Source: an uncultured candidatus Porisulfidus sp.
Lineage (GTDB): Bacteria; Pseudomonadota; Gammaproteobacteria; Poriferisulfidales; Oxydemutatoraceae
Direction of reading: 5' to 3'
DNA: 64,000 nucleotides
NCBI GenBank assembly: GCA_965215125.1
Contig: OZ244052.1
Coordinates: 1,312,001 to 1,376,000 of the forward strand
Translations under genes and position numbers: made by a program
The notes under the pieces: model-generated
Databases searched by the model: none
Seen by the model: the letters and a program-made list of their open reading frames with translations, nothing else
What the model was told of the DNA's origin: nothing
In this document: positions 14,389-55,097 of the stretch, piece by piece
Layout of the letters: each line of letters opens with the position of its first letter
How positions within the stretch are numbered: position 1 is the stretch's first letter

Positions 14389-14408
14389 CGGGATTTAGTA
14401 AACGGCTC

Positions 14409-14774
14409 CTAATCGGAGGTGTAATTCTTTTCGGTCTCGGGTGATGCCGTTTGCGCCTCTGCCGAAGAAGATTTTTTTATTTTGATAATCAAGGCGAGCC
14501 CGACCGCAGTCATCGAAACATTGACAACGATTGCGGTGAGTATCAGCACATGGGGTAAGGGGTTTGCATAAATATCGTAGTAGGGAGACAATAGCGGTGC
14601 GGTACTACCGACGACCGTGCTTGCCGATATGAAAAAAATAAAAACGGAGGTTTGCAATATGCCGATGCCGATTAATTTTTTAATCAGATTATCGTAGGCT
14701 ATGGTGATATAAAGCCCGATTGCGAGGAGTGTTGCGATTAGCAAGTGCATATAAGGCTGAAAAGAAGCATCCAT
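14409..14774 (-). CDS. mrpC: Mrp antiporter subunit C
   Basis: NLIKKLIG, NPLPHVLILTAIVV. Confidence 0.93.
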   Translation of the reverse strand: MDASFQPYMHLLIATLLAIGLYITIAYDNLIKKLIGIGILQTSVFIFFISASTVVGSTAPLLSPYYDIYANPLPHVLILTAIVVNVSMTAVGLALIIKIKKSSSAEAQTASPETEKNYTSD

Positions 14775-37941: not shown

Positions 37942-38619
37942 TTAAACCATAAAAGCAATCAGCGCAGCACCCATAATGCCAAGCAAAGTAAAACCGAGGA
38001 GCATTATCCCCCCTAGAACCAACGGTAGCTTCCAGTTAACAGTTTGTTTGAGATCTTTCACCGTTGATACTAACGCTTGCAGTGTCCGCATCATTTCGGT
38101 TTGTGACATATATTCGCGTTCCAATGCGATTTTGATATCCTCCGGCGAAAGTTTATCTCGCCCTTGGTACGGGCATTCATAGAGTGTGGATGACGGATGA
38201 TGAAGGCGATGAAACTCAACTGTCAAAAATCTATCCTTGTGCGGCACGATGATTGGTTTACTAGATAAATTGGTTAATCCGATAATTAACCGCCCTTCAA
38301 AGCCGGGGTCAACTTGAGGTCCGACCGTGGCGATCAGACCTTTACGTGCGTAAGAACTAGTTAATCCAAAACGGGCTGTATGTTGCAAGTCCAGTGTCAG
38401 TTTTTCGTGTGTGAGCATAATAACAAAATCCCCCGGCGTGATTTCTATAAAGCCCGTTTTGGTTAAATCTAATACTTCCTTTTTAGCTGAACTGGCTGCT
38501 TGATCACCAACTCGCAGATCGTAAGATGCCGGCTGTAGTAGCTCTTCAGAAAAAGGTTCTATCACTATGGACGAACTGTTTTTACATGTATTAAGTATGT
38601 CTTCGTTGGAGAGAATCAT
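37942..38619 (-). CDS. dCTP deaminase/dUTPase-fold protein with C-terminal helix and TM anchor
   Basis: MILSNEDI..IEPF..LQPASYDLRVG, SSYARKGL, VDPGFEG; about 25 hydrophobic residues at the C-terminus. Confidence 0.85.
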   Translation of the reverse strand: MILSNEDILNTCKNSSSIVIEPFSEELLQPASYDLRVGDQAASSAKKEVLDLTKTGFIEITPGDFVIMLTHEKLTLDLQHTARFGLTSSYARKGLIATVGPQVDPGFEGRLIIGLTNLSSKPIIVPHKDRFLTVEFHRLHHPSSTLYECPYQGRDKLSPEDIKIALEREYMSQTEMMRTLQALVSTVKDLKQTVNWKLPLVLGGIMLLGFTLLGIMGAALIAFMV

Positions 38620-38781
38620 ACAATACCCATATACCTGTGTTTAATTAATTGGTTTTCAATGTTCACGGATTATAGCACATGCGATCCTTTGCTTTGTAAA
38701 AAGCTGTTTTATCGGGACAAGATGTTTTTAGTATAAAAATTGAAGTGCGAGTATTTGCGATGCGAAGCGGTTGGGTTGATC

Positions 38782-38909
38782 CATTCCCTTTCTATGGAGA
38801 GGTGGCAGGCGCAATAGAACCGCCGATTAAGCCAGTAGGTTAATCGGCGTAACGTTTTGCAGAATCTTAGTACATATTGCAAAATGTAAAGCCTTTCCAT
38901 GGGGTGGTT
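38782..38909 (+). repeat. Composite REP-like element with ~90-bp cassette
   Basis: Collinear with 32265-32392 and with the reverse complement of 62276-62403. Confidence 0.9.
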
Positions 38910-39117
38910 TTATCAACCGCCACGCGCCCCGGACATATGTAAACCGGCACGTCGCTTTTGCACCAACTCAACCACCCTGCGCCTCAATATTTCCTAGCTA
39001 CTGCCTCTTTATTCGTTCCTTGATTACAGTTCTCTGGCACTGCTAAAATTAGGGTTGTATGACACCGCCTGAATATGTTGCATAATAACCCTTTTAATCA
39101 TTTATAAATCTACGGCG

Positions 39118-40674
39118 ATGGCAAAAAGCGATACAAAAAAAATTGAAAATATAGAGGCGCAATTATTCAAAGTAGCCGATAAGCTACGCAAAAACATTGA
39201 TGCGGCGGAATACAAGCACATAGTACTCGGCTTGATATTTCTCAGATACATATCGGATTCTTTCGAGGCACAACATCGCGAATTAAACCGCAAATTAAAA
39301 GAAACCAAAGTAGAATTTCCACCCGACCCCGAAGATCCCGATGAATACGCGTCTAGGAATACCTTTTGGGTTCCTGAAGAGGCTCGCTGGTCGTACTTGC
39401 AAGATCGTGCCAAGCTATCGAGTATCGGCAAGGATTTAGACTCGGCAATGGAAAAGATAGAAAAAGAGAGTCCCAACCTCAAGGGTATTTTGCCTAAGGT
39501 CTATGCAAAACCGAACCTTGACAGAGCCACCCTAGGCGGTCTGATTGATTTAATCAGCGATATTGCTCTAGGTGAAGCAGCGCAGCAGTCAAGGGATATT
39601 CTAGGCAAAGTCTATGAGTATTTTTTGGGAGAGTTTGCTTTAGCGGAAGGCAAAAAGGGCGGTCAATTCTATACGCCTAAATCAATTGTGAAGCTCTTGG
39701 TTGAGATGATAGAACCTTATCACGGCAGAGTTTTTGACCCTTGCTGTGGTAGCGGCGGTATGTTTGTGATGAGCGAAAAATTTGTTGAAGAGCATAGTGG
39801 GCTAATCAAAGACATCTCTATTTACGGACAAGAGAGTAATCAAACAACCTATAGATTATGCCGAATGAATCTGGCAATTCGGAACATTGACGGTTCACAG
39901 GTGCAATGGAACAACGAAGGTTCATTTTTGAAAGATGCACACCCCGATTTGAAAGCCGACTTTATACTTGCCAATCCACCGTTTAACGATAGCGACTGGA
40001 GCGGCGACCTACTACAAGACGACCCGCGTTGGAAATACGGCACGCCGCCGGCGAGCAACGCTAACTTTGCATGGGTGCAACACTTCTTATATCACCTAAG
40101 CCCTAAAGGTGTGGCAGGCTTTGTTTTGTCCAAAGGCTCGCTAACTTCTAAAACTTCCGGCGAGGATGTTATCCGAAAAAACTTAATCGACGGCAGTTTT
40201 GTAGACTGCATCGTCAACCTGCCGACAAAATTATTCCTCAACACACAGATTCCCGCGTGCCTCTGGTTCATATCCAACAAACGATACGGCTTTAACGGCG
40301 ACAGAAGTCGTAGTGGAGAAATGCTATTTATTGACGCACGGCACTTGGGACATTTAATAAACAGACGTACCCGAGAATTTTCCGATGAAGACATCGGCAA
40401 GGTTTCCGACACCTACCACCAATGGAGAAAGACAGACGGTCAATACAAAGATGTTCCGGGTTTTTGTGCATCGGTAGCGATTGAGAGAGTAAAAGAATTG
40501 GATTATGTGCTCAGCCCGGGACGTTATGTAGGCACCGTAGAAATAGAGGACGACCATGACTTTGCCGAGCGTTTTGCAGAACTAAAAGCAGAGTTTGAAA
40601 CACAGGTGAGAGCAGAGGCTGGATTGAGCAAACGGATTTTAGAAAACTTAAACAAAATTGAATATGAGAAATAA
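39118..40674 (+). CDS. hsdM: Type I R-M methyltransferase subunit
   Basis: EYKHIVLGLIFLRYISD, GQFYTP, DPCCGSGG, NPPF. Confidence 0.97.
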   Translation: MAKSDTKKIENIEAQLFKVADKLRKNIDAAEYKHIVLGLIFLRYISDSFEAQHRELNRKLKETKVEFPPDPEDPDEYASRNTFWVPEEARWSYLQDRAKLSSIGKDLDSAMEKIEKESPNLKGILPKVYAKPNLDRATLGGLIDLISDIALGEAAQQSRDILGKVYEYFLGEFALAEGKKGGQFYTPKSIVKLLVEMIEPYHGRVFDPCCGSGGMFVMSEKFVEEHSGLIKDISIYGQESNQTTYRLCRMNLAIRNIDGSQVQWNNEGSFLKDAHPDLKADFILANPPFNDSDWSGDLLQDDPRWKYGTPPASNANFAWVQHFLYHLSPKGVAGFVLSKGSLTSKTSGEDVIRKNLIDGSFVDCIVNLPTKLFLNTQIPACLWFISNKRYGFNGDRSRSGEMLFIDARHLGHLINRRTREFSDEDIGKVSDTYHQWRKTDGQYKDVPGFCASVAIERVKELDYVLSPGRYVGTVEIEDDHDFAERFAELKAEFETQVRAEAGLSKRILENLNKIEYEK

Positions 40675-40698
40675 ACCGAAACCGTCAAGAGGGAACTC

Positions 40699-41106
40699 AT
40701 GGATAATGATTTGAGATGGAAACAACGTTTTCAAAATTTTGAAAAATCTTTTGAGGCTTTGCAGAGACGGATAAATCAATACGAGCAATATCCTAACGAC
40801 GAGGGTTCTCAAATGGCATTGTTATCATCTTTTATAATCATGTATGAACTCAGCTGGAAAGTACTCAAAGATTATTTACAAAACGAAGGTGTAGATGTGA
40901 ACAATAGTCCTAGAAATGTATTCAGAAATGCATTTCAAAACGAGCTGATATTCAAAATAGAGCCATGGATGGAGTCAATTGTCATAAGAAATGAAACGGT
41001 TCATACCTATCATGAGGATATTTTGCGAGAAGTCATTCAGTTTATTACCGAGACCTTTTATCCTATTGTTCGGGATCTGTATTTTCAACTGAAAAAAGAA
41101 CTATGA
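40699..41106 (+). CDS. HEPN toxin (HI0074 / nucleotidyltransferase substrate-binding family)
   Basis: RWKQRFQNF, YELSWKVLKDYL, SPR, RNETVHTY (R-x4-H-x-Y). Confidence 0.9.
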   Translation: MDNDLRWKQRFQNFEKSFEALQRRINQYEQYPNDEGSQMALLSSFIIMYELSWKVLKDYLQNEGVDVNNSPRNVFRNAFQNELIFKIEPWMESIVIRNETVHTYHEDILREVIQFITETFYPIVRDLYFQLKKEL

Positions 41107-42578
41107 AATACGGTTTGTCCGAAGAACAACTGGCAGAGATCTGTAATATCATTGGTTCATATCCCCAAATAGAAGCAGCGGTTATTTACGGTTCACGGGC
41201 TGACGGTGCTTATAAAGAAGCCTCGGATGTAGATATTGCTATCAAAGGAGGAAAAACCAACGAATCCCTTGCCGCAAAACTAAAATTCCATTTAGAGGAA
41301 GAAACCTACCTGCCTTTCTTTTTTGATGTCATCGCCTACAATGCCATCACCTCCACCGAACTAAAAAATCAAATCAAGGTTAAAGGCAAAACAATCTATC
41401 GGAGGGGGTGGCGTGAAGTTAAATTGGGAGATGTTGTAGAAATAATAGGCGGAGGAACACCCAGTACCAAAGAACCTAAATATTGGAATGGTGATATTCC
41501 TTGGTTAACACCCAGAGATTTATCTGATTTTAAGTGTAGATATATAGCTAAAGGTGAGAGAAATATATCCAAATTAGGATTACAAAATTCAAATGCAAAA
41601 TTACTTCCCGTAGGAGCGGTGCTTTTAACTACTAGAGCACCAGTTGGTTACTTGGCAATTGCTAGAGATGAGATTGCTGTCAATCAGGGATTTAAGGGAT
41701 TAATTGCAAACAGACATATTGATAATTTACTTTTATATTATCTGTTGAAACACAATGTTGATTATCTTAAAGCACATTCAAGTGGAACAACTTTTGGTGA
41801 GTTATCTAAAGCCTCCTTAACATCTATACCATTTTACATTCCCTCTCTTCCCGAACAAAAAGCCATTGCCGAAGTTTTGAGTAGCCTTGACGACAAAATA
41901 GATCTTTTACACCGACAAAACAAAACTCTTGAGAATATGGCACAAATCCTATTCCAAAAATGGTTTATTGAAGACGCAGACGATACATGGGAAGAGAAAC
42001 CTTTGGCTGATTTACTAGATTTTCTAGAAGGTCCAGGCATCCGTAATTGGCAATACACAGAAAAAGGGACACGCTTTATAAATATCAGATTAATACAAGA
42101 TGGCGAAATAGATGTTAAAAAATCAAACTTCATATCTGACGAAGAGGCAAATGGTAAATATAAACATTTTTCACTACAGGAAAGAGATATGGTTGTTTCT
42201 ACTTCTGGTACTTTAGGAAAAGTAGCAATCGTTCGTTCTTATCACTTGCCCTTGATGCTCAATACAAGCGTGATTAGATTTAGACCTAAAGACGGCATAA
42301 ACTATTCGTTCATGTACCAATACTTACAATCAAAGGAATTTAAGAATGAACTGGAAAGCCTAGGAAGTGGTAGCGTCCAGAAAAATTTTGGTCCAACTCA
42401 TTTGAAAATGATGAAGATGAGAATTCCTCCAGAAAGAGCTTTGAATGACTTCAGAAATCATGTTGATGACCTGTATTCAAAATTATTACAGAACTATTCT
42501 CACATTTATGAAATTGAGACCATTAAAAATACGCTTGCACCCAAATTAATGAGTGGTAAAGCGAGAGTAGTAAAATAA
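41103..42578 (+). CDS. hsdS: MNT nucleotidyltransferase fused to Type I specificity subunit HsdS
   Basis: aa 1-100 carry GS-x10-DVD and PFFFDV; then WREVKLGDV, TRD1, the EQKAIAEVLSSLDDKID spacer, TRD2 and PKLMSGKARV, all in one frame. Confidence 0.93.
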   Translation: MKYGLSEEQLAEICNIIGSYPQIEAAVIYGSRADGAYKEASDVDIAIKGGKTNESLAAKLKFHLEEETYLPFFFDVIAYNAITSTELKNQIKVKGKTIYRRGWREVKLGDVVEIIGGGTPSTKEPKYWNGDIPWLTPRDLSDFKCRYIAKGERNISKLGLQNSNAKLLPVGAVLLTTRAPVGYLAIARDEIAVNQGFKGLIANRHIDNLLLYYLLKHNVDYLKAHSSGTTFGELSKASLTSIPFYIPSLPEQKAIAEVLSSLDDKIDLLHRQNKTLENMAQILFQKWFIEDADDTWEEKPLADLLDFLEGPGIRNWQYTEKGTRFINIRLIQDGEIDVKKSNFISDEEANGKYKHFSLQERDMVVSTSGTLGKVAIVRSYHLPLMLNTSVIRFRPKDGINYSFMYQYLQSKEFKNELESLGSGSVQKNFGPTHLKMMKMRIPPERALNDFRNHVDDLYSKLLQNYSHIYEIETIKNTLAPKLMSGKARVVK

Positions 42579-42659
42579 TTCGTATAATATCTTGATGAAG
42601 TTTAGAGGTTATGAAAGGAATAAAATAAATCACGGTAAAACACATATTATTAAAGAACA

Positions 42660-44057
42660 ATGTCAGAAGAAATCATTCTAAAATCTCGTGAAGATAGAGA
42701 ATTCATTACTCTTACAAAAACCAAAGATAACAAATACATTTCAAAGTCTAGTCATGACCATCCGTGGGCTAGAGGTGAAATTGATAATGCCGTTTTGAGA
42801 TCTCGTATTGAACCCTGGTTAACGGCACTATTTCAATCTGAACATTTTTCTTTGTTGGTAGGTGCTGGATTGACTGAAGCAGTGCTTGGTTTGGCGCAAT
42901 CTGATGACAAACCTAAGATGCCGACACCACGGTTTAGTGAGTTTTCAGAACAGATTAACGATGCCTCAAAGGTTTCTGATGCAAACAATTTAACTACTAC
43001 CGATATTGAATTACAACTTCAAGTAGCCAACGAACTACTTATAGGATTAAAACATTTGCATCAGAGAAACGAGAATAACGAACAAATTTCTACGCTAGAA
43101 AACGAAATTACAGAGTTTCTCAAAGAATTTTCGGAATACATTTTGGAACTAGAAAATAAAATAGTAGAAGCTAAAAATAGGAAACAAGCTTTTAATTATT
43201 TAGTCAACTTCCTAACTAGTTTTGCTAGCCGTTCCGGCCCTAGAGACCGATTACAAATTTTCACCACAAATTACGACCGGGTTATTGAGATAGGTGCGGA
43301 AGTGGCAGGATTACGCTTACTTGACCGTTTTGTAGGCAGTGTTTCTCCTATTTTTAGGTCTTCAAGATTGAATGTTGATATGCACTACAATCCGCCCGGT
43401 ATACGGGGAGAACCTCGCTATTTAGAAGGTGTTATCCACTTCACTAAATTGCATGGTTCTATTGATTGGAAGCAGTTAAATAAAGATATTCGTCGGATAG
43501 GTTTGCCGTTTGGTGCAAAAAGCCTTGATCCCTATTTAGAAAACTCTAACAAATTAATGATCTATCCGAACGCCGCCAAAGATAAAGCAACAGTCGTTTA
43601 TCCTTATGTAGAAATGTTTAGAGATTTCGCTGCTTCTATATGTAGGCCGAACAATACATTGGTTACATACGGTTATAGTTATAACGATGACCATATCAAC
43701 CGAATAATAGAGGATATGCTTACTATACCGTCCACTCATTTAGTCATTATTTCGTATGGTAATAAAGATAAAAAGATTAAAAGCATGTATAAAGAGATTG
43801 GCAGACCAGCTCAAATCACACTTCTCATAGGGAAGGATTTAGCTGGATTAAAACCACTGGTGGATAATTATCTGCCTAAAGCGGCGATTGACCGTATTAC
43901 TTCTCGCATGGTGGATTTACTCAAATCGCGTTTAGAAACCGAAAGTAATTCTGAAATCGAAACTGCAAAGTTTATCAAAGAGACACCCGAGCCTAATTTA
44001 GATCGCAATGAAAGCGAAACATCAAATACTATAAATGACGACGACCTCGATTTTTGA
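42660..44057 (+). CDS. SIR2-like NADase of a Sir2-HerA defence system
   Basis: LLVGAG, FTTNYD, KLHGSIDW, GYSYNDDHIN; overlaps the herA start. Confidence 0.9.
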   Translation: MSEEIILKSREDREFITLTKTKDNKYISKSSHDHPWARGEIDNAVLRSRIEPWLTALFQSEHFSLLVGAGLTEAVLGLAQSDDKPKMPTPRFSEFSEQINDASKVSDANNLTTTDIELQLQVANELLIGLKHLHQRNENNEQISTLENEITEFLKEFSEYILELENKIVEAKNRKQAFNYLVNFLTSFASRSGPRDRLQIFTTNYDRVIEIGAEVAGLRLLDRFVGSVSPIFRSSRLNVDMHYNPPGIRGEPRYLEGVIHFTKLHGSIDWKQLNKDIRRIGLPFGAKSLDPYLENSNKLMIYPNAAKDKATVVYPYVEMFRDFAASICRPNNTLVTYGYSYNDDHINRIIEDMLTIPSTHLVIISYGNKDKKIKSMYKEIGRPAQITLLIGKDLAGLKPLVDNYLPKAAIDRITSRMVDLLKSRLETESNSEIETAKFIKETPEPNLDRNESETSNTINDDDLDF

Positions 44058-46239
44058 ACAATTAGAATCTTTATGCATTGGGACGGTAGAGTTTGTATCC
44101 CCAGATGAAATAAAAGTCTCCTTAAACCTAGAAGCTCCCGAATCACTAGCCTTAAATGCAGAAAATCCTATAACTTTTCCTAAAATTAACAACTATTTGC
44201 TTATTCCCAACAATGAGGGATATTTAGTCGGACAAATAGAATGGTTAGCAAGTGAACGAGTACCCTATACAAAACGCAAGGATATACAAAAGGATTCTGG
44301 ATTGGTTGACCTGCCGTATCCTTCAAGAAAAATGAGCCTTAATCCTGTTGGGATACTAAACGAGATAAGAGGCGAGGCAGATAAAGAGAAAAAGGATTTT
44401 GAATTTAAGCGTGGCGTTAATGTATTTCCATCGGTGGGAGATAATGTTTTACTTCCTACGCAAGAGCAACTTCATGCAATTATAGTATCGGGAGAAGATA
44501 AACAAGTAAGTATTGGCATTAGCCCACTTGTAGATGGTGCTGAAGTATGCGTTAATCCAGATCGTTTATTTGGTCGACACCTCGCTGTTTTAGGCAATAC
44601 AGGAAGTGGCAAATCCTGTTCTGTAGCAGGACTTATCCGCTGGTCATTGGAAGCAGTTTCCAAAAAGGAGAAAAAACCGAATGCTCGTTTTATCGTGTTA
44701 GATCCAAACGGAGAATATTCCAAAGCCTTTGGATCCGATAATAGCAATGATTCTGTAGTTAAAGCACGAATATTTCAGGCGGAACCGAATGGCAAAAATA
44801 AAAAATTACAAGTACCTCTTTGGTTTTTGAATAGTTCCGAATGGGCTGCTTTTGCTCAAGCTAGTGAAAAAATGCAAAAGCCTACACTTGTGGATGCACT
44901 TAGTAATGTGAGGAGTGGACGCACGGAGTTCACTAGGAATAAAGGTCATGAGATGAGAAATTTTCTTAGAACAATTGTTACAATTATCCATGCAGCAAAA
45001 AATTCTGGCGATCCCTGGGGGAAGTTTCCTAAACCTAAAGGCTTCCTTGAGAAGATAAAGAAATGGAATGAGGGAGGGTTAGAAGAAGATGGTGTATTTT
45101 CAGAGAATCAAAAGAAAGCAATGCATATGCTAAAAGAATATATTGATGGGCTTGTGGAAGAGCGTCCTATAGAAAAAAGTACTAATTATGATTTTAAAAA
45201 ACATCAAATAGACTGTCTCTTAGAATTAGCCCAGCAGGCTTATTATGCTTTTGGTGGTAAAGACGAAGATCTCTTAGCAATAGGTGCGGATATCCCAAAG
45301 CCATTTTTCAAAGAATCATTTATTAGAAGTGTTGAGGCAAGTGCGGAAATGTTAAAAGCAGTTGAATATGTAGAACCTTTGCTTATGCGTATTCGTGCCA
45401 TGCTAGGCGACCAAAGAATGAAATCAATTATGGATGACTCTGGTAGTAAAATTACACTTGCTCAATGGCTAAAAGATTATATTGGTGGAGATGAAAATGA
45501 AAGTAACATAACAATCATTGATTTGTCATTAATTCCTGCTGATGTAATCCATATTATTACTGCTGTTATTGCGAGGATGGTTTTTGAAGCCTTGCAACGT
45601 TATAGAAAAATTCATACCGAGAAGAAAACTTTACCGGTGGTTATGGTTATGGAAGAAGCCCATACATTCGTGAAACGCTATAAAGACGATATTGAAAATA
45701 GAGGCTCAGCTACTATTTGCTGTCAAATATTTGAAAAAATTGCCCGAGAAGGTCGTAAATTTGGATTAGGGTTAGTTATTTCATCACAACGTCCTTCTGA
45801 GTTGTCTCCTACTGTTCTTTCTCAATGCAATACGTTTTTACTCCATCGTATTAGCAACGACAGAGATCAAGATCTAGTAAAGCGATTCATTCCCGAAAGT
45901 CAAAAAGGAGTACTTAGAGAACTACCCGTACTTCCTTCGCAACAAGCAATTTTAATGGGTTGGGCTTCTGAACTTCCTTTGCTGGTAAAAATGCACTATT
46001 TGCCGGAAGAACAGCAACCACAATCGGATGATCCAGATCTTTGGAAAGTTTGGACTCGAGAAAATGACAGAAAAGTAGACTGGGACGAAATCGCTGATGA
46101 TTGGGTCAAGCCGGAAGAGGAAACCAATTATGAGGCAGAAAGCACCAATCAAACAGAAAATTTTGATGAAAAGAAAATTGATTCTGAGACAGACAGTACT
46201 AATCAAATAAAAAGTCCTGATGATGACATCCCATTTTAA
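44035..46239 (+). CDS. herA: HerA/DUF87 ATPase of a Sir2-HerA defence system
   Basis: HLAVLGNTGSGKS, DPNGEY, EEAH, REGRKFG..SQRPSE. Confidence 0.92.
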   Translation: MTTTSIFEQLESLCIGTVEFVSPDEIKVSLNLEAPESLALNAENPITFPKINNYLLIPNNEGYLVGQIEWLASERVPYTKRKDIQKDSGLVDLPYPSRKMSLNPVGILNEIRGEADKEKKDFEFKRGVNVFPSVGDNVLLPTQEQLHAIIVSGEDKQVSIGISPLVDGAEVCVNPDRLFGRHLAVLGNTGSGKSCSVAGLIRWSLEAVSKKEKKPNARFIVLDPNGEYSKAFGSDNSNDSVVKARIFQAEPNGKNKKLQVPLWFLNSSEWAAFAQASEKMQKPTLVDALSNVRSGRTEFTRNKGHEMRNFLRTIVTIIHAAKNSGDPWGKFPKPKGFLEKIKKWNEGGLEEDGVFSENQKKAMHMLKEYIDGLVEERPIEKSTNYDFKKHQIDCLLELAQQAYYAFGGKDEDLLAIGADIPKPFFKESFIRSVEASAEMLKAVEYVEPLLMRIRAMLGDQRMKSIMDDSGSKITLAQWLKDYIGGDENESNITIIDLSLIPADVIHIITAVIARMVFEALQRYRKIHTEKKTLPVVMVMEEAHTFVKRYKDDIENRGSATICCQIFEKIAREGRKFGLGLVISSQRPSELSPTVLSQCNTFLLHRISNDRDQDLVKRFIPESQKGVLRELPVLPSQQAILMGWASELPLLVKMHYLPEEQQPQSDDPDLWKVWTRENDRKVDWDEIADDWVKPEEETNYEAESTNQTENFDEKKIDSETDSTNQIKSPDDDIPF

Positions 46240-46314
46240 GGCAACATAATTGTTCAGCGTTAACAGAATGATTTTTTTACGAAAGCAAACGATTTCAAAC
46301 GCCAAGCGATAAAT

Positions 46315-46376
46315 CATGCTTTCCCTCTACGAATCCGGAACTGATGAACGGTGAGGCACGGGTAAAACAGCCTTAA
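46315..46376 (+). pseudogene. Chimeric scar: hsdR 5' start fused to a second hsdS 3' end
   Basis: 46315-46337 is identical to 49448-49470 (23 bp); from the shared CCG it reads PELMNGEARVKQP*, versus PKLMSGKARVVK* in the intact HsdS. Confidence 0.8.
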
Positions 46377-46516
46377 TGCCGGATAAGAAAACACCTACAA
46401 AATAAGGTGTAAATTTATCTTATCAAAGTGTCGTTTAATCTATAATGTGCTTTTACCTATTGCTTTTAGCACCGAATATAATTTCAATACTCCGGAAGTT
46501 TTTAATATACAGAAAA

Positions 46517-47410
46517 ATGGATGACAAGGGAAAATATCTAGCCAGAATACTCTTTAAGCTAAAAATACACGAAACCGAAGGAAAATCTTTTGAAGATTTA
46601 TTTGCTCACATTATGAACTATTCAGAACCGGATTTTCAAAGGATAAAACCATGGGGCAGTATTGGTGATCGCAAAAATGATGGTTATATTCCTTCACAAG
46701 GAATATATTTTCAGGTCTATGCTCCGGAAGACATACGCAAATCTCTCGGTAATGCAATTAAGAAGCTGGAATCCGATTTTGCCGGTCTTTTAGAAAAGTG
46801 GAAAGAAATCAAAGCATATTATTTTGTTATCAACGATAAATATCATGGAGTGCCGGCACATCTTTTACAAGCCATACAAAAAATTGCCAATGATCATGAG
46901 ATAAAAGCAGAGGTTTGGGGTGTTAATAAACTGGAGGATTTAGTCTTCTCTTCTTTAGATGATGACCAAATATTAAGTATTACCGGTTCATTTCCTAATC
47001 CTGAAGAAATACACTTAGACTATTCTGTTTTAGACGAAGTGATAACACATCTGATGAAAATAGATATTAGCGACATTCAGGATGGTGACATTAAATATCC
47101 GAATTGGGGTGAGAAGATCGAATTTAATGGTTTATCGGAGGCAGTGAAAAGATACTTGGAGCAGGGTTTTTTACATGTTGCCGAACTGGATGAATGTCTT
47201 GACAACAATAGTAATTTTTTTGCGGAACAGGTCAAGGATCGGGTCAGAGAAATTTATATCAATAAAGCCAGAGAGTTTTCGGGAGACAAATTATTTATGA
47301 AAATAATGAATACTATTAGTCATAGGCAGGAACAACTATTCCAATTTGCAGCGATTATAATAATGGCTAAGTATTTTGAAATTTGTGATATTTTTAAGAA
47401 GCCTGAATGA
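46517..47410 (+). CDS. lmuA: Lamassu/ABC-three-component effector: restriction-endonuclease-fold domain plus CTD
   Basis: FEDLF...GDRKNDG...FQVYAP nuclease-like motif; C-terminal YFEICDIF; probable start MDDKGK. Confidence 0.78.
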   Translation: MDDKGKYLARILFKLKIHETEGKSFEDLFAHIMNYSEPDFQRIKPWGSIGDRKNDGYIPSQGIYFQVYAPEDIRKSLGNAIKKLESDFAGLLEKWKEIKAYYFVINDKYHGVPAHLLQAIQKIANDHEIKAEVWGVNKLEDLVFSSLDDDQILSITGSFPNPEEIHLDYSVLDEVITHLMKIDISDIQDGDIKYPNWGEKIEFNGLSEAVKRYLEQGFLHVAELDECLDNNSNFFAEQVKDRVREIYINKAREFSGDKLFMKIMNTISHRQEQLFQFAAIIIMAKYFEICDIFKKPE

Positions 47411-47649
47411 TATTACCTACAAAAAATATTAATTTTTCCAAGTCCCTATTAGGGTTCGGTTCCTATGTGTTGTCACTGCTTGATAGTTCCCAAAGTATTG
47501 ATGATTTATGGCAACAATATCGCAAGGACTATAAGAAGAAGAGATATCCGGGAAAACATACCTTTGATAATTTGATTATGACATTGATTTTTTTATATGT
47601 TGCAGGTTGTATTCTTGAACAGGACGGGCTTATAAAAAGATGCGTTTAA
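47407..47649 (+). CDS. lmuC: ABC-three-component middle component
   Basis: 80 aa; MILPTK..SLL..G, IDDLW, LIFLY..G; overlaps both neighbours. Confidence 0.78.
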   Translation: MILPTKNINFSKSLLGFGSYVLSLLDSSQSIDDLWQQYRKDYKKKRYPGKHTFDNLIMTLIFLYVAGCILEQDGLIKRCV

Positions 47650-49379
47650 TTTCAATATCGGCAAACCAAGATAGCTTCAAAAAAATAGACTTTAATCCAT
47701 CGGGTGCTAGCTTTATTATTGCCGAACAGAAAGACCCCGGCCAGAGCGATAAAAAGAAAACCTACAATGGTGTCGGTAAATCTCTTTTAGTTGCGTTAAT
47801 TGATTTTTGCCTGGGAGCCGGTGCGAGTAGTGGCATCACTAAAACATTAAGTTCGTGTGATGACTTAAAAGATTGGAAGTTTACCTTGAAGATAAGTATA
47901 AAGGGTAAGCCCTACATTATTACAAGATCGGTTGATAATCATAAATCAATTGAGTTGAACGATGAAACTTTGAAACTGACAGAATTTCACCAACGAATGC
48001 AAGAGCTATGTTTTGATATAGAGGAAGGTTTCAAGTTCTTGACTTTTCGTTCTTTGTTACCGTTTTTCCTGAGACCGTCAAAAACTTCATATACAAATTA
48101 TGATAAACCTCAGGCATCTTACACACCGTATCAAAAACTACTTTACAACGCTTTTTTATTAGGCTTGGATGTCTTTTTAGCCGATAAGAAAAAAGTACTA
48201 AAAGACGATTTAACGACACGAAGAAATAGCTTACGAAACACAGAAAAGGATCCCATCATAAGAGGATTTTTCGGTCACAATCAAAATGTGAGTGATGATT
48301 ATCTATTACTTCTTAGGGATATAGAGGAAAAAATTAAAAAATTGGAGGAAGATCTAAAAAATTACAGGGTTGCCAAGGATTATTATCAGCGTCAGGAAGA
48401 AGCGGATCAGTTGAAAAAATTGATTGATGAGAAGCAAAAACAAATCTATCTACATAAAAGTACCATAAAGCGGATCGATCAGAGTTTACGGTTTGAAGTT
48501 GATATAGATCAAAAGGACATTAAAAAGATATACGAGGAATCTAAAAAGGTATTTCAAGTTGAAGTAAAAAAGAGGTTATCGGATTTAGAAAAATTTTATA
48601 CGGATTTGAAGACTAATCGTACAAAAAGATTAGCGGAGCAAAAACGGTCAATTATGAACGAGTTAGAAAAGTTAGAAGAAGAGGCGGCAAAATTACAAGC
48701 ACAATTTGACGAAACCTTAGCATTTCTCGGGTCACATCGCGCATTGGATGTTTTTGTTGAAACAAACAAACAATTAAGTGAGCTAAAACAAAAAAAAGAA
48801 AAGTTGGTTTCTTATCAAGAATTTCAGAAAAAATACAAAAGAGAAATAGAAAAATTAAAACAAAGTTTAAGGGACGAAAACGGCAAAACAACCGAATACT
48901 TGGAAATAAACGAATCTTTTTTAGAATCTATTAATAACGATTTTAGGACTTTGGCAAAGAAATTTTACCCCGATGAACTAGCCGGTATCACGATTGTCAA
49001 TAACGAAGGGGAAAATCAAATTAGATATAACATAGAAGCAAAAATACAATCGGATTCTTCCGATGGAATTAATAGTGTCAAATTGTTTTGTTATGACTTA
49101 TGTGTGCTATTCGGTGCTAACAATCATCATATAGATTTTATTTTTCATGACAGCAGGTTATTCAGCGATATTGATGAAACACATTGTGAGGTGTTGTTTG
49201 ATATTGTTCGCGATAAATTTAAGGATAAGCAATATATAGCGAGTATTAATCAGAAGGACTTAATAACCTTAGCTGAACCGGTTCAGGCTTTTATAAGACA
49301 AAACACGGTTTGTAAACTAAACGATGAATCCGAAGAAGGTAAGTTATTAGGTAGGCGGGTAGAATTGGAATACGACTAG
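47640..49379 (+). CDS. lmuB: SMC-like ABC ATPase (DUF2326-type)
   Basis: Walker A NGVGKS, long coiled coil, SSDG signature, FIFHDS, QYIASIN. Confidence 0.85.
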   Translation: MRLISISANQDSFKKIDFNPSGASFIIAEQKDPGQSDKKKTYNGVGKSLLVALIDFCLGAGASSGITKTLSSCDDLKDWKFTLKISIKGKPYIITRSVDNHKSIELNDETLKLTEFHQRMQELCFDIEEGFKFLTFRSLLPFFLRPSKTSYTNYDKPQASYTPYQKLLYNAFLLGLDVFLADKKKVLKDDLTTRRNSLRNTEKDPIIRGFFGHNQNVSDDYLLLLRDIEEKIKKLEEDLKNYRVAKDYYQRQEEADQLKKLIDEKQKQIYLHKSTIKRIDQSLRFEVDIDQKDIKKIYEESKKVFQVEVKKRLSDLEKFYTDLKTNRTKRLAEQKRSIMNELEKLEEEAAKLQAQFDETLAFLGSHRALDVFVETNKQLSELKQKKEKLVSYQEFQKKYKREIEKLKQSLRDENGKTTEYLEINESFLESINNDFRTLAKKFYPDELAGITIVNNEGENQIRYNIEAKIQSDSSDGINSVKLFCYDLCVLFGANNHHIDFIFHDSRLFSDIDETHCEVLFDIVRDKFKDKQYIASINQKDLITLAEPVQAFIRQNTVCKLNDESEEGKLLGRRVELEYD

Positions 49380-49448
49380 TGTCGTAGTTTGTTCTCTATC
49401 GGTATATGTTTGCCCTAAATACAGCCTCAATCTTCACAATCAACCCCC

Positions 49449-52400
49449 ATGCTTTCCCTCTACGAATCCGAAGTTGAAGAGTGGGTGATAGAGCTTCTGC
49501 AGGAGCAGGGGTATAGCTATCTTTCACCGGAGGAGCAGGAGCGGGCGCGTGGTGGTTTTTCGGAGGTTGTTTTCCGAGAGCATCTAAAGGATGCCGTCAC
49601 TCGCCTTAATCCCGATATTCCCGAAGATGAGCAGGAATATGCGCTACGAGAAGTTTTAGGATTATCCAGTCAGAGTATGATTGAAAACAACGAGACTTTT
49701 CATCGGTACTTGATCGAAGGTTTCTCGTTGGAATACCAAAGAGAAGGCGACACGGTCGGTGGTAAGGTGATGTTGGTTGATTTTGAAAACCCGATGAACA
49801 ACGATCTCATCGTTTGCAATCAGTATACCGTCGTAGGGAATAAAAATAAGACAAAGATACGCCCCGATGTGGTTTTATTAATCAACGGTTTACCTTTGGT
49901 TGTGATTGAACTCAAAAACCCTACCGATGAGAAGGCCACGGTTAAAAAAGCATATACTCAGTTACAGAATTATAAAAAGGCTGCGCCGAGTTTGTTTTAC
50001 TACAACGGGGTTTTGGTTGCGTCGGACGGTCTGGATGCTAGAGCGGGTTCGCTCACGGCGGGCATGGATCGTTTTATGGCATGGAAAACCGTTGACGGTG
50101 TCAGGGAGGATAAAAGCACGACACCACAGGTAGAGACGCTTATTAAAGGGATGCTTCGTCCCGATGTGCTGCTTAACCTTATAAAGCAGTTTACGGTTTT
50201 TGAAAAATCGCAAGCCGAAACCAGCAAAAAAATTGCTGCATACCATCAGTATTACGCAGTGTGCAAGGCAGTGGAGTCAACCATTCGGGCAACTGCGACA
50301 GGAGTTTCCGAAGCAGAGAAGGAAGCACCTGAGGACTCCGATTTGCCGATGGTTAACAGTCAACCGGCGGGTGATAGAAAAGTCGGTGTTGTTTGGCACA
50401 CGCAAGGCAGCGGCAAATCGCTTTCTATGGTTTTTTATGCCGGCAAGTTGATGGGAGATGCGCGTATGAAGAATCCGACCTTGCTCGTGCTTACCGATAG
50501 AAATGATCTTGACGACCAGTTGTTCGGGGCATTTGCGGCGAGTCGGCAATTACTAATAGAAGAACCGGTGCAAGCGCAATCTCGCGATCACTTAAAAAAA
50601 CTTTTGCAAACACAAGGCGGTGGCATCGTTTTTACAACGATTCAAAAATTTTCTCCCGAAGAGGATAGAGAGCAATTCGAGTTACTTTCGGGGCGTGAAA
50701 ACATCGTTGTTATTGCCGATGAGGCGCATCGCTCTCAATACGGCTTCAAAGCGATAACCGGCATAAAAGATAATCGGGTATCTATACGCTATGGTTTTGC
50801 TAAGTATCTGCGGGATGCCTTACCGAACGCCTCTTTTATCGGTTTTACCGGCACACCGATTGAGAGAGCGGACATTTCAACACGGGCAATTTTCGGTAAT
50901 TACATTGACATTTATGATATTCAACAATCGGTGGAAGATGGGGCAACTATTCCCATTTACTATGCATCGCGTCTAGCGCATGTGCATCTGAAGCCGGAGG
51001 AAATGCAAAAGCTGGATGATGAGGTTGAACAGATTACCGAAGATCAGGAGTTCACCGCTACGGAGAAAGCGAAGGCAAAATGGGCGCAAATGGAAGCGAT
51101 CGTAGGTAATGAGGAACGGCTGAAAGTAGTTGCACAAGACATCGTTGAGCATTTTGAGGAACGACAAAAAGCACTTGAAGGCAAAGGCATCATTGTTGCA
51201 ATGAGCCGGCGTATTGCCGTTGCGCTATACGACATGATTACTAAGTTTCGTCCGGATTGGCACGATACCGATCTTGAGAAGGGGCAGATAAAGGTCATTA
51301 TGACTTCTAATTCAAGCGACCCGTCAAGTTATCAGCCGCATCGTACAACCAAGAGGCAAAAGAAAGAATTGGGGGATCGGTTTAAGGATCCCACGGATTC
51401 TTTGAAGCTGGTTATCGTGCGAGATATGTGGTTGACCGGTTTTGATGCACCGTCTTTACATACGATGTATATAGACAAACCGATGCGTGGGCATAATCTT
51501 ATGCAGGCGATTGCGCGCGTCAACAGGGTCTATAAAAATAAACCCGGCGGACTTGTGGTGGATTACATCGGAATTGCTCACGACTTAAAGCAGGCACTTG
51601 CGATTTATACGAATAGTGGTGGGCGAGGGCAACCGGCATTGGAACAGGAAACCGCAATTGCAACGATGATAGAAAAATACGAAATCGTTGTGCAGTTGTT
51701 CAATGGTTTTGACTACAAGCGATACTTCGCTGCCGATACTGGAGAAAAACTGACCATCATTTTGGAGGCACAGGAGCATATACTCAATTTGGACGATGGC
51801 AAGAAAAGGTATATAGAACAACTCTCGGTACTAGCCAAAACATTTGCGCTTTCGGTGCCTAGCGACGAGGCAGCGAAAATCAGAGATGAGCTAGGCTTTT
51901 TTGAAGCGGTGAAAGCTAGACTAATAAAACTAGAATCGTCGGATAACGGGAAAAGCGATGCCGAAATAGAAACAGCAATTAAACAAATCGTTGATAAAGC
52001 GATTATGACCGACGAGGTTATCGACATTTTTGATGCAGCGGGAATCAAGAAGCCCGACATTTCTATTCTCTCCGACGAGTTTCTGGAGGAAGTGCGAGGC
52101 ATGCAACATAAAAATCTAGCCATAGAACTTTTGAAAAAAATTCTTAACGATGAAATCAAAGCCAGGATTAAAAAGAATTTTATTCAAGGTAGGAAACTTT
52201 CGGAGATGTTGGATGCTGTGATTAAGCGGTATCGGAATAATTTGTTAACCACGGCACAAGTCATTGAAGAGCTTGTAAGCCTTGCCAAAGAGATAACAGA
52301 TGCCGATAAACGAGGTGAGAGATATGGGCTTTCGCAAGAGGAATTGGCGTTTTATGATGCGCTTGCCGATAATGACAGTGCAAAAAGGGTGCTGGGAGAT

Positions 52401-52619
52401 GACACACTGCGAGATATTGCAAGAATTTTGGTTGAAAAGGTGAAGAAGGGAGCTACTATTGATTGGACTATTAGAGAAAGCGTGCAAGCGGGGCTTCGTG
52501 TTGCCGTGAAAGGCGTGCTGCGTAAATACGGTTATCCGCCCGACAAACAAGAGACTGCAACACAAAATGTTTTGAAGCAAGCAGAGAGTTTTGCCGACGA
52601 ATGGGCTTCCGATCTGTAG
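49449..52619 (+). CDS. hsdR: Type I R-M restriction subunit
   Basis: RPD..LINGLPL..IELK nuclease motif, HTQGSGKS, DEAH, FTGTP, LTGFDAP, QAIARVNR. Confidence 0.98.
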   Translation: MLSLYESEVEEWVIELLQEQGYSYLSPEEQERARGGFSEVVFREHLKDAVTRLNPDIPEDEQEYALREVLGLSSQSMIENNETFHRYLIEGFSLEYQREGDTVGGKVMLVDFENPMNNDLIVCNQYTVVGNKNKTKIRPDVVLLINGLPLVVIELKNPTDEKATVKKAYTQLQNYKKAAPSLFYYNGVLVASDGLDARAGSLTAGMDRFMAWKTVDGVREDKSTTPQVETLIKGMLRPDVLLNLIKQFTVFEKSQAETSKKIAAYHQYYAVCKAVESTIRATATGVSEAEKEAPEDSDLPMVNSQPAGDRKVGVVWHTQGSGKSLSMVFYAGKLMGDARMKNPTLLVLTDRNDLDDQLFGAFAASRQLLIEEPVQAQSRDHLKKLLQTQGGGIVFTTIQKFSPEEDREQFELLSGRENIVVIADEAHRSQYGFKAITGIKDNRVSIRYGFAKYLRDALPNASFIGFTGTPIERADISTRAIFGNYIDIYDIQQSVEDGATIPIYYASRLAHVHLKPEEMQKLDDEVEQITEDQEFTATEKAKAKWAQMEAIVGNEERLKVVAQDIVEHFEERQKALEGKGIIVAMSRRIAVALYDMITKFRPDWHDTDLEKGQIKVIMTSNSSDPSSYQPHRTTKRQKKELGDRFKDPTDSLKLVIVRDMWLTGFDAPSLHTMYIDKPMRGHNLMQAIARVNRVYKNKPGGLVVDYIGIAHDLKQALAIYTNSGGRGQPALEQETAIATMIEKYEIVVQLFNGFDYKRYFAADTGEKLTIILEAQEHILNLDDGKKRYIEQLSVLAKTFALSVPSDEAAKIRDELGFFEAVKARLIKLESSDNGKSDAEIETAIKQIVDKAIMTDEVIDIFDAAGIKKPDISILSDEFLEEVRGMQHKNLAIELLKKILNDEIKARIKKNFIQGRKLSEMLDAVIKRYRNNLLTTAQVIEELVSLAKEITDADKRGERYGLSQEELAFYDALADNDSAKRVLGDDTLRDIARILVEKVKKGATIDWTIRESVQAGLRVAVKGVLRKYGYPPDKQETATQNVLKQAESFADEWASDL

Positions 52620-52660
52620 TCTATTTATCGCGGCTCTCGTTGCATAACTTCAAGAGGAGG

Positions 52661-54187
52661 TTATTCAGAGGTATACAAGATATTGTTATTCTCTAGATAT
52701 TCCAAAAACTCTACAATGGTTTTGGGAGAAATGAGCAGATTATCTGTTTGTTTCAGGAAGTTAATCTGGCGTATAGTGTCCTTAAAAATACTGGGTGCAA
52801 CAAAGTAACACATTGATTTTTCTACTTTCGTGTCAAACTTTTCTAAGTGTCTAGCAATCGGCCACACTTCCGCCATAGTTTGGGTTCTCCCCTCGGACAT
52901 TGTTACCTCAATTAAGACTCCGTTTACATCTTCAAAGCATTCAATGTCCCCGGTGTCCCTGGAGCCTTTTGCGGTTGATGTCGGTATACCTTCATCATCA
53001 ATAGGATAATTTGGTATTACTTGTATATTCGGGAATTTTGATTTCACTGCCAATGCCGTCAAAAACTCAAACCGTATTGGACCTGATAGATATTTCAAAG
53101 TTTCATGTTTCGTTAATTTTCTACTTGATAGTATTAGCATTTCTTTTTTGATTGTCTCCCAAGTATGTATATCAACCCACTTTTTCAAGAATTCATCGCG
53201 CTCGGAAGCTGAAACAGTTTTTGGTTTAGACGAAATTAAGTTTTTATCGATAGTGGAGATATACTCAAAATAACTTTCTTCTGTATCGTATTTTTTATAC
53301 TCGGAATAGTTTTTCAGAATATAATTTATTTTTACTTGCTCGTTTTTGTTGATATCGATAAACCTTCCTCCACCGCGCAAAGAGATAAGGCCGGTTAATC
53401 GCATTTTTCGGATAAACTCGTCGGGATAATCTACTATGATAGATTTATCGTTCCGTCTAATATCTCTGCCTTCCATGATTTCATTCCGACAAATTCTCAT
53501 AATTATTTCCCTGCTCGGAGAATATCGAAAGTCTTGCCGTAATCTTTTAATTCTCCGATATAACGTCTCTGCATCGTTATTTTTCCAATAAATTACCAGT
53601 GGTAATTCTAGTTTTGAAATGCCCGCGCCATTGTATTCATCGTCGGCGTTTAATTTAGTGATTACTCGGAGCAATAAGACCAAAGGTACATTTTCATTCA
53701 ATACCCTCCGAAAAGGACTATTTGCTTGGTATTTCACAAAAGCATTCAAGAAAGCCTGTTGCTCAAATTCAGGATATTTGTTGTCAACAAGTTTTAATCC
53801 TACCTTTGAGAATCTTATTTTCTTTCCGGTTCGGTAAAATACAAATCCTAGTTCTTTAGAAAATTTGAACCAAGTATCAAAACGAGATGGCCAGCCTTTA
53901 CTAAACCCTGCTTCTTTATGATTTTGCGGATTGTCTCGTAGTATCTTTTTAACTTCTTTATCGGACAGAGGGTTATTTTCTCTCATTTTTTGTTTTATAT
54001 TTTGGGGTAATCTAATCGGTTGGTATAAACCAATTCTGATAATTTCCCCGACAATTTCTTCTGCTAATTTGTCGTCAAGAATTTTTCCGTTATAGTCCTT
54101 TAAGACATTGAGAAAGTCTTTCAATCGCTCGGGGCTTCTAATCGTTGTTGTGAACAATAATGGTTTGTATTCGGCTTGTCTCGGCAT
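52661..54187 (-). CDS. AlwI-family Type IIS restriction endonuclease
   Basis: FTTTIRSPER, RKMRLTGLI, DDEGIPTSTA..GDIEC...IEVT...PIARHL...FVAPSI. Confidence 0.85.
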   Translation of the reverse strand: MPRQAEYKPLLFTTTIRSPERLKDFLNVLKDYNGKILDDKLAEEIVGEIIRIGLYQPIRLPQNIKQKMRENNPLSDKEVKKILRDNPQNHKEAGFSKGWPSRFDTWFKFSKELGFVFYRTGKKIRFSKVGLKLVDNKYPEFEQQAFLNAFVKYQANSPFRRVLNENVPLVLLLRVITKLNADDEYNGAGISKLELPLVIYWKNNDAETLYRRIKRLRQDFRYSPSREIIMRICRNEIMEGRDIRRNDKSIIVDYPDEFIRKMRLTGLISLRGGGRFIDINKNEQVKINYILKNYSEYKKYDTEESYFEYISTIDKNLISSKPKTVSASERDEFLKKWVDIHTWETIKKEMLILSSRKLTKHETLKYLSGPIRFEFLTALAVKSKFPNIQVIPNYPIDDEGIPTSTAKGSRDTGDIECFEDVNGVLIEVTMSEGRTQTMAEVWPIARHLEKFDTKVEKSMCYFVAPSIFKDTIRQINFLKQTDNLLISPKTIVEFLEYLENNNILYTSE

Positions 54188-54191
54188 AATT

Positions 54192-55097
54192 TCAATAGTT
54201 GGTAATCAAGACTTCTTTAATTTTTTTCCGGGTATTGTTGTGATAGTTGATGTAATTGCTTTGAATATCATGGACTTGGTATTTTTTCATCCATTCAATC
54301 AGTAAATCATTTTTTCTTCCGTTGTAATGAGTAATATTTGACAAAGCAAATTTAATGCTCTTTCTATTTAATGTATCAATTAAATCAAGCAAGTTTTTTT
54401 CTTCTTTTGAGTTCCATAACTTATTGTATTCGCTTGAAGCGATAAGGTAAGGAGGGTCAAGGTAGACGAAGTCATTTTTGGTAAATTCTTTTTTCTCAAA
54501 AAATCGCCTAAAGTCTTTAGTCGAGAACTGTATTTTTTTATTTTTTACAAAATCAAAATAATTATTAAGTGCTTTTACAACATTTTTATTAAAATCGACA
54601 TTTCCAACAGGCAAATTGAATGAACCACCGCCATTGAAACGTAACATCCTATTAAATCCGTATATCAATAGCACATACAAAATAAGAGGATCATTTTTTC
54701 GATTTTTGTTCACATCGTTTTTTAATTTTTCATATCCTTCTTTGTTGAATTTAGAATAATAAGTCTTCTTAAACTCTTTTTTTAGAGCATCGGGCACAAT
54801 ATCTTTTTTGTAGGAATGAGATAATTTGTATTTGAAGACGATTTTTTCAACTTTGTCAAAAAACTTTCCCGTATTTTCTGCATTCGAAATTAAGTATTCA
54901 TGAATATTAACAAGGTGTTTATTTATATCATTCAAAAAATACTTCTTTGCGTTGATATTCAGGAAAACCGTACCACCACCAACAAATAATTCATAAAAGT
55001 TTTCTATTTTCTCGGGAAACAAATTTAGCAGTTGTTCCATTAGCCGATATTTATCCCCGACATAAAAGAGAGGTGATCTATTTATTTTCTGTTCCAT
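54192..55097 (-). CDS. Dam/D12-class N6-adenine methyltransferase (second strand)
   Basis: SPLFYVGDK, ELFVGGG, FNLPVG, YLDPPY, EVLITNY. Confidence 0.93.
   Translation of the reverse strand: MEQKINRSPLFYVGDKYRLMEQLLNLFPEKIENFYELFVGGGTVFLNINAKKYFLNDINKHLVNIHEYLISNAENTGKFFDKVEKIVFKYKLSHSYKKDIVPDALKKEFKKTYYSKFNKEGYEKLKNDVNKNRKNDPLILYVLLIYGFNRMLRFNGGGSFNLPVGNVDFNKNVVKALNNYFDFVKNKKIQFSTKDFRRFFEKKEFTKNDFVYLDPPYLIASSEYNKLWNSKEEKNLLDLIDTLNRKSIKFALSNITHYNGRKNDLLIEWMKKYQVHDIQSNYINYHNNTRKKIKEVLITNY

Follow-up and report, generated by a model that had tools for sequence, protein, structure and literature searches.

A scar between two defence cassettes points to additive recombination at the hsdS-hsdR junction of type I restriction-modification operons

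The type I restriction-modification (R-M) operon considered here belongs to an uncultured candidatus Porisulfidus sp. of the Gammaproteobacteria and carries, between its hsdS and hsdR genes, two defence cassettes separated by a 62-base element (46315-46376), hereafter the scar, which is a junction of the 5' head of hsdR with the 3' tail of a different hsdS allele (hsdS'). The operon lies in a 64,000-nucleotide stretch of contig OZ244052.1 (assembly GCA_965215125.1, positions 1,312,001 to 1,376,000), which we call the window and to which all coordinates given without a locus name refer. A genome scan with HsdR returned 61 loci (designated by L and a number), three of which are close relatives of the window operon, their HsdR being 96% (L001, over residues 1-890), 87% (L002) and 87% (L003) identical to that of the window. 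The genes of the window operon and the katG before it are all on the plus strand and follow the order katG, hsdM, a HepT-like gene, an hsdS fused to an MNT domain (MNT::HsdS), SIR2, HerA, a three-gene cassette and hsdR. The features of the operon are as follows.

39118-40674, plus strand: hsdM, type I methyltransferase subunit (Pfam N6_Mtase, E 1e-106, and HsdM_N).
40699-41106, plus strand: HepT-like gene (NTase_sub_bind) in the hsdM-hsdS interval (Pfam PF08780, E 6e-31; NCBIfam HI0074 family, above cut-off).
41103-42578, plus strand: hsdS with an N-terminal MNT nucleotidyltransferase fusion (Pfam Polbeta at residues 12-101, Methylase_S from residue 102).
42562-42659, plus strand: left boundary of cassette 1, consisting of the last hsdS codons, which travel with the cargo, and a spacer (alignment of the window with L002).
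42660-44057, plus strand: SIR2 gene of cassette 1 (PADLOC SIR2, E 8e-149; Pfam SIR2_2).
44035-46239, plus strand: HerA gene of cassette 1 (PADLOC HerA, E 8e-242; Pfam DUF87).
46293-46314, plus strand: stretch resembling the 3' end of the OLD-family cargo gene of L002, i.e., an L002-type hsdR-upstream context (18/22 bases).
46315-46337, plus strand: hsdR head remnant, one upstream base, the ATG and 19 further bases, or 7 codons and one base (23/23 match to 49448-49470).
46335-46376, plus strand: hsdS' tail remnant, PELMNGEARVKQP and a stop codon, sharing its first bases with the head remnant (DNA homologous without a break to the L003 hsdS 3' end).
46377-46444, plus strand: native spacer between hsdS' and the three-gene cassette, which came with cassette 2 (aligns with L003 6932-7014 and L001 6926-6993).
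46445-47410, plus strand: cassette 2 gene A, effector-like, with an ABC-3C CTD10 domain, PDC-M68A (Pfam CTD10, E 7e-11; PADLOC PDC-M68A, E 9e-12).
47407-47649, plus strand: cassette 2 ABC-3C middle component MC6 (Pfam MC6, E 9e-15).
47640-49379, plus strand: cassette 2 gene B, ABC/SMC-like ATPase of 579 aa, PDC-M68B (PADLOC PDC-M68B, E 7e-82; Pfam DUF2326).
49380-49448, plus strand: native hsdR leader containing aatcttcacaatcaac, conserved before hsdR in the window, L001 and L003 and present also before the L001 scar.
49449-52619, plus strand: hsdR, intact, 1056 aa (Pfam HSDR_N, SWI2_SNF2, T1R_D3-like and T1RH-like_C).

The genes on either side of the cassettes form a type I R-M system. HsdR has an N-terminal nuclease region, an SF2 motor and a C-terminal domain (Pfam) and scores 625 bits with the NCBIfam model TIGR00348 (cut-off 284.55); it is accompanied by HsdM and by an HsdS with two target-recognition domains (TRDs), Methylase_S being matched in two stretches (Pfam); TIGR00497 scores 191.7 bits, below the cut-off of 242.75. 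At the DNA level, hsdM is 96% identical to that of L001 and 88% to that of L002. What lies between hsdS and hsdR is embedded cargo, that is, same-strand non-hsd genes of the defence type without mobility genes: no recombinase or transposase domain was found by Pfam in the window's own cargo. The G+C content of the cargo region is 32-39% versus 44-50% in hsdM and hsdR. A scan of 38600-52800 for promoters and terminators returned counts at or below shuffle level (36 versus 37.8 and 7 versus 11.3), and megablast of 39000-53000 against E. coli genomes gave no match.

The upstream cassette consists of adjacent SIR2-family and HerA-family genes recognized by PADLOC, in agreement with the initial annotation, which was made from the sequence before any database search and placed SIR2-HerA inside the hsd operon; the NCBIfam anti-phage SIR2 and HerA models match the pair below their cut-offs (129.5 versus 500 and 235.3 versus 850, respectively). 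The downstream cassette had been called a Lamassu-type triad. A three-gene ABC-3C cassette is indeed present inside the operon, but the label is loose: the best PADLOC matches are PDC-M68A and PDC-M68B, the parts recognized by Pfam are those of ABC-3C systems, which we take to include Lamassu, and the PADLOC Lamassu models match weakly (LmuA, E 4e-4; LmuB, E 2e-8), so that the cassette is fairly described as Lamassu-like rather than assigned to Lamassu. On these matches, the cassette is best called a candidate PDC-M68 system (ABC-3C, Lamassu-like). A sequence search of the Protein Data Bank with the 579 aa ATPase gave no match at E 0.01, and no NCBIfam family was matched by the three proteins of cassette 2.

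The two cassettes are 205 bases apart, and the spacer between HerA and the three-gene cassette contains the scar. The 23-mer CATGCTTTCCCTCTACGAATCCG occurs in the window exactly twice, at 46315-46337 and at 49448-49470, where it comprises one base and the first 22 bases of hsdR; the two copies match at 23/23 positions, and the repeat pair extends to 29/33 bases in a repeat search. The ATG of the scar is at 46316-46318 and its frame reads MLSLYESGTDER before a stop codon, while the frame opening at CCG (46335) reads the tail peptide listed above. The duplication of the hsdR start had been noticed in the initial annotation, whose coordinates and readings for it are correct.

Alignment of the scar with hsdR and hsdS homologues recovers the hsdR head in its first half and the L003 hsdS tail in its second. 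By blastn, window 46334-52619 aligns with L003 6886-13171 as one block of ~6.3 kb that is 86.6% identical, and the L003 side of this block starts inside an intact hsdS ending in LLPKLINGEARLKQQL and a stop codon. Since the block runs without interruption through the hsdS end, the spacer and the three-gene cassette, the tail half of the scar is a homologue of a real hsdS 3' end; the tail peptide also fits the C-terminal motif of HsdS, for which the consensus over 39 related loci is RDTLLPKLMSGEVRV. Thus, the switch to the C-terminus of a different hsdS allele claimed in the initial annotation is secure at the DNA level, through the L003 block, and weaker at the level of the peptide (see below). 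The same annotation located the switch at a shared CCG. A junction of shared bases is indeed found there, but, from the sequences at this place, cttcTTCCGAAactgat in the L003 hsdS and gaaTCCGAAgttgaa in all four hsdR heads, the shared microhomology was probably TCCGAA rather than CCG. The base that follows CCG is G in the window (46338), C in L001 (6887) and A in the L003 hsdS and in all four hsdR heads. The window and L001 scars thus carry two different changes at the crossover base, and the rest of the 62 bases differs between them at one position only.

Could the scar be a chance repeat or an assembly artefact? The relatives are metagenome-assembled, and short repeats can mislead assemblers. 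However, none of 100 dinucleotide-preserving shuffles matched the 23-mer, even with 3 mismatches allowed; L001, whose 2.37 Mb chromosome record was assembled independently, has the same junction; homology ties the tail half to a genuine hsdS end; and comparable remnants occur in 8 more loci, as described below. We regard the probability of this explanation as negligible.

The close relatives show how the two cassettes occur apart. In L003, the three-gene cassette is the only cargo: it comes, with the same spacer before it, immediately after an intact hsdS and precedes hsdR. L002 has a single cargo, one OLD-family gene (AAA_15 and OLD TOPRIM; PADLOC Old, E 7e-33). In L001, a PDC-S21/DUF4917 gene is followed by the same scar and the three-gene cassette, and SIR2-HerA is absent. 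The two cassettes do not, therefore, always form one block in relatives: single-cargo alleles, which the initial annotation had suggested looking for, exist in L003 and L002, and L001 has a different upstream cargo. The proteins of cassette 2 are 92-96% identical between the window and L001; gene A is 93% identical to its L001 and 77% to its L003 counterpart, and MC6 is 96-97.5% identical to both.

The DNA of the window is 96% identical to L001 over 38775-41999 and 95.6% identical over 46314-52094. Between these, at 42000-46313, blastn detects no homology to L001, and homology resumes at 46314, the first base of the scar. Because the junction is the same and identity is ~96% on both sides of the swapped block, the scar and the three-gene cassette predate the split of the window and L001. 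The alignments show that a block from TRD2 of hsdS through the upstream cargo was exchanged after this split, with its right limit exactly at the scar: the upstream position holds SIR2-HerA in the window versus PDC-S21 in L001, and the window hsdS, which shares TRD1 with L001, has TRD2 and tail of the L002 type. The window hsdS is in fact the L002 allele (88% DNA identity), with homology extending to 42561. To the left of the scar, L001 keeps more of the hsdR leader (aatcttcacaatcaac), while in the window the 22 bases before the scar ATG agree at 18 positions with the end of the OLD gene that abuts hsdR in L002, and window 46296-46351 aligns with L002 9981-10036 by blastn.

These comparisons also give the limits of a cassette. 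When the four hsdS 3' ends are aligned, each allele pair stays together up to the conserved PKLM(S/N)G codons and diverges directly behind them, within ~10 codons of the end of the gene; the window and L002 part just after the motif AATGAGTGGTAAAG, and in both allele pairs the sequence that travels with the cargo starts inside the hsdS tail. The left limit, as read from these alignments, is thus in the last ~10 codons of hsdS and the right limit in the first codons of hsdR.

We propose, with a probability of roughly 60%, that the hsdS-hsdR interval is a recombination-driven defence-cassette slot and that the scar of the window marks where two single-cargo alleles were put together additively in one exchange. 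The head of one hsdR would have been joined at TCCGAA to the tail of an L003-type hsdS preceding the three-gene cassette. At one end, the long conserved hsd genes would have recombined homologously; at the other, a short illegitimate join would have closed the exchange. This is the pattern of homology-facilitated illegitimate recombination, which has been documented in transformable bacteria and uses joints of 3-10 bp (PMC6382021, citing de Vries and Wackernagel 2002). As in that process, foreign DNA would have been added between a long homologous anchor and a microhomology join at the opposite side, and here the 6 bp microhomology, reconstructed from relatives, is within the range of such joints and is accompanied by long hsd homology on either side; unlike in the studies of that process, the defining features of which include dependence on RecA and on DNA uptake, it would here be deduced from what it left behind in genomes of uncultured bacteria. 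Two orders of the event fit the sequence, since either the three-gene cassette may have been added downstream of a resident cargo or a cargo may have been added upstream of a resident three-gene cassette. Later, the upstream cassette was swapped again together with TRD2 of hsdS.

The identical junction with two left contexts, the usual hsdR leader in L001 versus an L002-type sequence in the window, is also what would be expected if a circle of hsdS' tail, three-gene cassette, hsdR leader and hsdR head, closed at TCCGAA, had integrated through short-homology recombination at the hsdR heads of different recipients. In this case, however, integration in the window would rest on 23 bases of homology only, neither a circle nor an excision function is known, and the ~96% identity of the window and L001 on both sides of the swapped block fits shared descent with one later swap. 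We consider the circle improbable.

The slot proposed here is not restricted to the close relatives. Among the 39 loci in which both genes were placed, the hsdS-hsdR interval is longer than 700 bases, i.e., occupied, in 38, L014 being the only empty one. The 95 open reading frames (ORFs) of the slots include, by Pfam, KwaB, HamA with a helicase, SduA, SMODS, GmrSD, RhuM, a reverse transcriptase, DUF4917 and others, and the defence systems that these domains represent include Kiwa, Hachiman and Shedu; L040 has SIR2 and HerA that are 27% identical to the window pair. At E <= 1e-5, Pfam recognized neither a recombinase nor a transposase domain in any of these ORFs.

When the slots were searched with the HsdR head and HsdS tail of every locus, 12 position bins of at least 30 bits were found in 107.7 kb, which we take to represent 10 separate remnants, of hsdR heads or of hsdS tails, in 8 loci (L004, L012, L017 with two, L028 with two, L037, L038, L048 and L055), all on the plus strand and at cargo boundaries. 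The same search of 155 kb of control flanks gave none, and scars similar to that of the window, which had been anticipated from its sequence, thus exist in 8 further loci. The family spans several phyla, and the loci bearing remnants belong to other phyla than the window. Matches below 30 bits in L008, L013 and L035 (E 0.009-0.043) and an hsdS-tail match in L044 (E 0.001) were left uncounted. The hsdR heads (8 in 6 loci) are at most ~100 codons long and the hsdS tails at most ~30 codons, and no hsdM pieces are present. Each hsdR-head remnant is nearer to the hsdR head of another locus than to its own, from which it follows that the resident and incoming hsdR heads differed. Local duplication of the target-site type was ruled out, as the head remnants of the distant loci differ from their own hsdR head and are nearer to those of others.

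Stacks are found as well. L017 and L028 have three cargoes each, with an hsdR-head remnant at both of the boundaries between them; the middle cargo of L028 is the only cargo of L024, and the first cargo of L037 is the one that abuts hsdR in L048. In L038, an hsdR-head remnant (9805-9861) lies 127 bases before the real hsdR with no ORF of at least 70 aa between them, and it may represent a stack that lost its second cargo or one with a very small cargo. In L055 (8966-9096), between a 138 aa ORF and a Bro-N gene, a remnant of an hsdS tail runs straight into one of an hsdR head; this pair resembles the junction of an empty operon, in an order that is the reverse of that in the window scar, which suggests that the junction was empty at first and received cargoes on either side.

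The initial annotation derived the scar from a tandem ancestor, in which two full operons, hsdS-[SIR2-HerA]-hsdR and hsdM-hsdS'-[three-gene cassette]-hsdR, lay one after the other until a microhomology deletion removed hsdR from codon 8, hsdM' and most of hsdS'. Microhomology deletions are common, and this route gives exactly the observed junction. However, not one of the 30 loci with flanks of 5 kb or more is tandem: neither HsdM nor HsdS was matched beyond hsdR, nor HsdR ahead of hsdM (0 matches in each case), and the remnants are short heads and tails without hsdM pieces, unlike the leftovers of random deletions. The tandem route also needs two events where a single exchange yields the same sequence. 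We therefore did not retain the tandem ancestor, which we consider unlikely, and a single exchange, homologous on one side and joined at TCCGAA on the other, fits better.

Several points weigh against the additive exchange proposed here. We infer the one-step mechanism from the end sequence, which fits a tandem followed by deletion, or integration of a circular cassette, equally well. The window itself shares only TCCG, the full TCCGAA being reconstructed from L003 and the hsdR heads, and the odd base after CCG, G or C versus A in both presumed parents, could mean that the junctions in the window and L001 arose independently. For the upstream cargo to be swapped later, the right-hand crossover would have had to fall in a stretch of no more than 23-26 identical bases. 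The tail peptide on its own resembles HsdS C-termini weakly (75% over 12 residues, E 0.014 within the slot set). In the survey, hsdS ends and hsdR starts were set automatically, and the hsdS end of L028 looks wrong. Finally, the relatives are all metagenome-assembled genomes. The Neisseria-type uptake motif, a hint of competence for DNA uptake, has 0 matches in the window.

It is also possible, although we put this forward tentatively and hold it to be rather doubtful, that the hsdS tail and the hsdR head are the two docking ends of an integrase-free array present across phyla, in which every additive event leaves behind a head or tail remnant that can serve again for docking, arrays reach three or more cargoes and inner positions can be swapped. 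The facts that bear on this are that the window and L001 differ only in a block ending at the scar and that L017 and L028 carry three cargoes.

That defence genes are often embedded in R-M type I, BREX, DISARM and Hma systems is known from a published survey, from which the PDC candidates, including PDC-M68 and PDC-S21 of this analysis, were derived (Payne et al., bioRxiv 10.1101/2024.01.29.577857). Examples of 'guilt-by-embedding' are PrrC in EcoprrI, TgvAB in V. cholerae VPI-2 and DarTG2 in EPEC; TgvAB is embedded in a type I cluster, and RloF in Campylobacter is cited along with it (10.1101/2024.04.04.588119), while the site of DarTG2, between hsdS and hsdR, has been called a 'potential recombination hotspot' (PMC12255303). 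The cargo described here resembles the embeddings of Payne et al. in that it consists of defence genes on the same strand between hsd genes, mostly hsdS and hsdR. In the main text of that preprint the route of embedding is left open, with a 'genomic sink' idea only, and the words 'recombination' and 'remnant' are absent; unlike there, the physical junctions are seen here, with limits in the hsdS tail and hsdR head and remnants between stacked cargoes. The view of the initial annotation, that the hsdS-hsdR junction is an integrase-free slot which accumulates cargo besides swapping it, is thus upheld by the swap relative to L001, by the stacks and by the lack of recombinase domains in the slot ORFs, but as an idea it is not new, since embedding and a potential hotspot were already in print. 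In a literature search that did not cover subscription journals and preprint supplements, no description of remnants of hsdR heads or hsdS tails lying between embedded cargoes came up; as far as checked, the scars, the cassette limits and the evidence of additive growth are new.

Two known systems invite comparison. Like integron arrays, the slots hold ordered, same-strand, promoterless-looking cassettes that grow and swap at a fixed genomic position. Unlike integrons, the slots lack both an attC-like element and an integrase domain, whether inside or next to them; their boundaries are coding ends of hsdS and hsdR, and the joints are irregular in length, with heads of 7 to ~100 codons. As in the shuffling of HsdS TRDs, in which TRD2 is exchanged through recombination in conserved parts of hsdS, the window and L001 have TRD1 in common and are different from 42000 onwards; unlike in TRD shuffling, the swapped block continues through the downstream cargo to the scar, and hence specificity and cargo change together.

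Other parts of these operons and their surroundings vary too. The MNT domain (Polbeta, MntA-like) is fused in frame to the HsdS N-terminus, with no stop between, in 10/10 loci checked (the window, L001, L002, L003, L014, L043, L044, L046, L047 and L048, from Gammaproteobacteria, Bdellovibrionales and Paludibacter), and a HepT-like gene lies just upstream of the fusion in most of the ten; MNT::HsdS and HepT look like a toxin-antitoxin pair, the antitoxin half of which was absorbed into the specificity subunit. The hsdM-hsdS interval, which holds HepT and MNT in the window, appears to be a second slot of the same operons and is often occupied, with gaps of 0.5-4.2 kb in many loci (e.g., L030, L035, L026 and L021). 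Between katG and hsdM of the window, a dCTP deaminase gene is encoded on the minus strand (37942-38619; TIGR02274, 97.8 bits versus a cut-off of 92.8); the region has no homologous DNA in L001 or L002 and no PADLOC match, and the gene may have a housekeeping role, as a dcd, or be one more variable insert next to the operon.

The position directly downstream of hsdR is another variable position. A KAP-family P-loop NTPase occupies it in L002 (13184-15457) and L003 (13184-15463), where it sits, in L003, between hsdR and an AlwI-like gene, and is missing from the window; there, hsdR is followed on the minus strand (52661-56901) by a type II system with an AlwI-like endonuclease and two Dam-like methyltransferases, one of which is fused to a RadC/JAB domain. 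In L001, hsdR itself is broken by ~1.9 kb (about 12646-14538) with two minus-strand ORFs, one with a helix-turn-helix and a weak rve (integrase core) match, and HsdR residues 867-1056 resume at 14530; the insert looks like an insertion sequence, and the restriction subunit of L001 is, therefore, probably dead.

The slot and its scars bear on how defence islands gain and shuffle systems without the machinery of mobile elements. The junctions provide physical evidence that one route is recombination at the conserved ends of the hsdS and hsdR coding sequences, by which cassettes can be added besides being replaced. Remnants of the kind described here can be searched for genome-wide and could be used to date the order of acquisitions, and, inside type I operons, the cassette limits can serve as a practical guide to new candidate defence genes.

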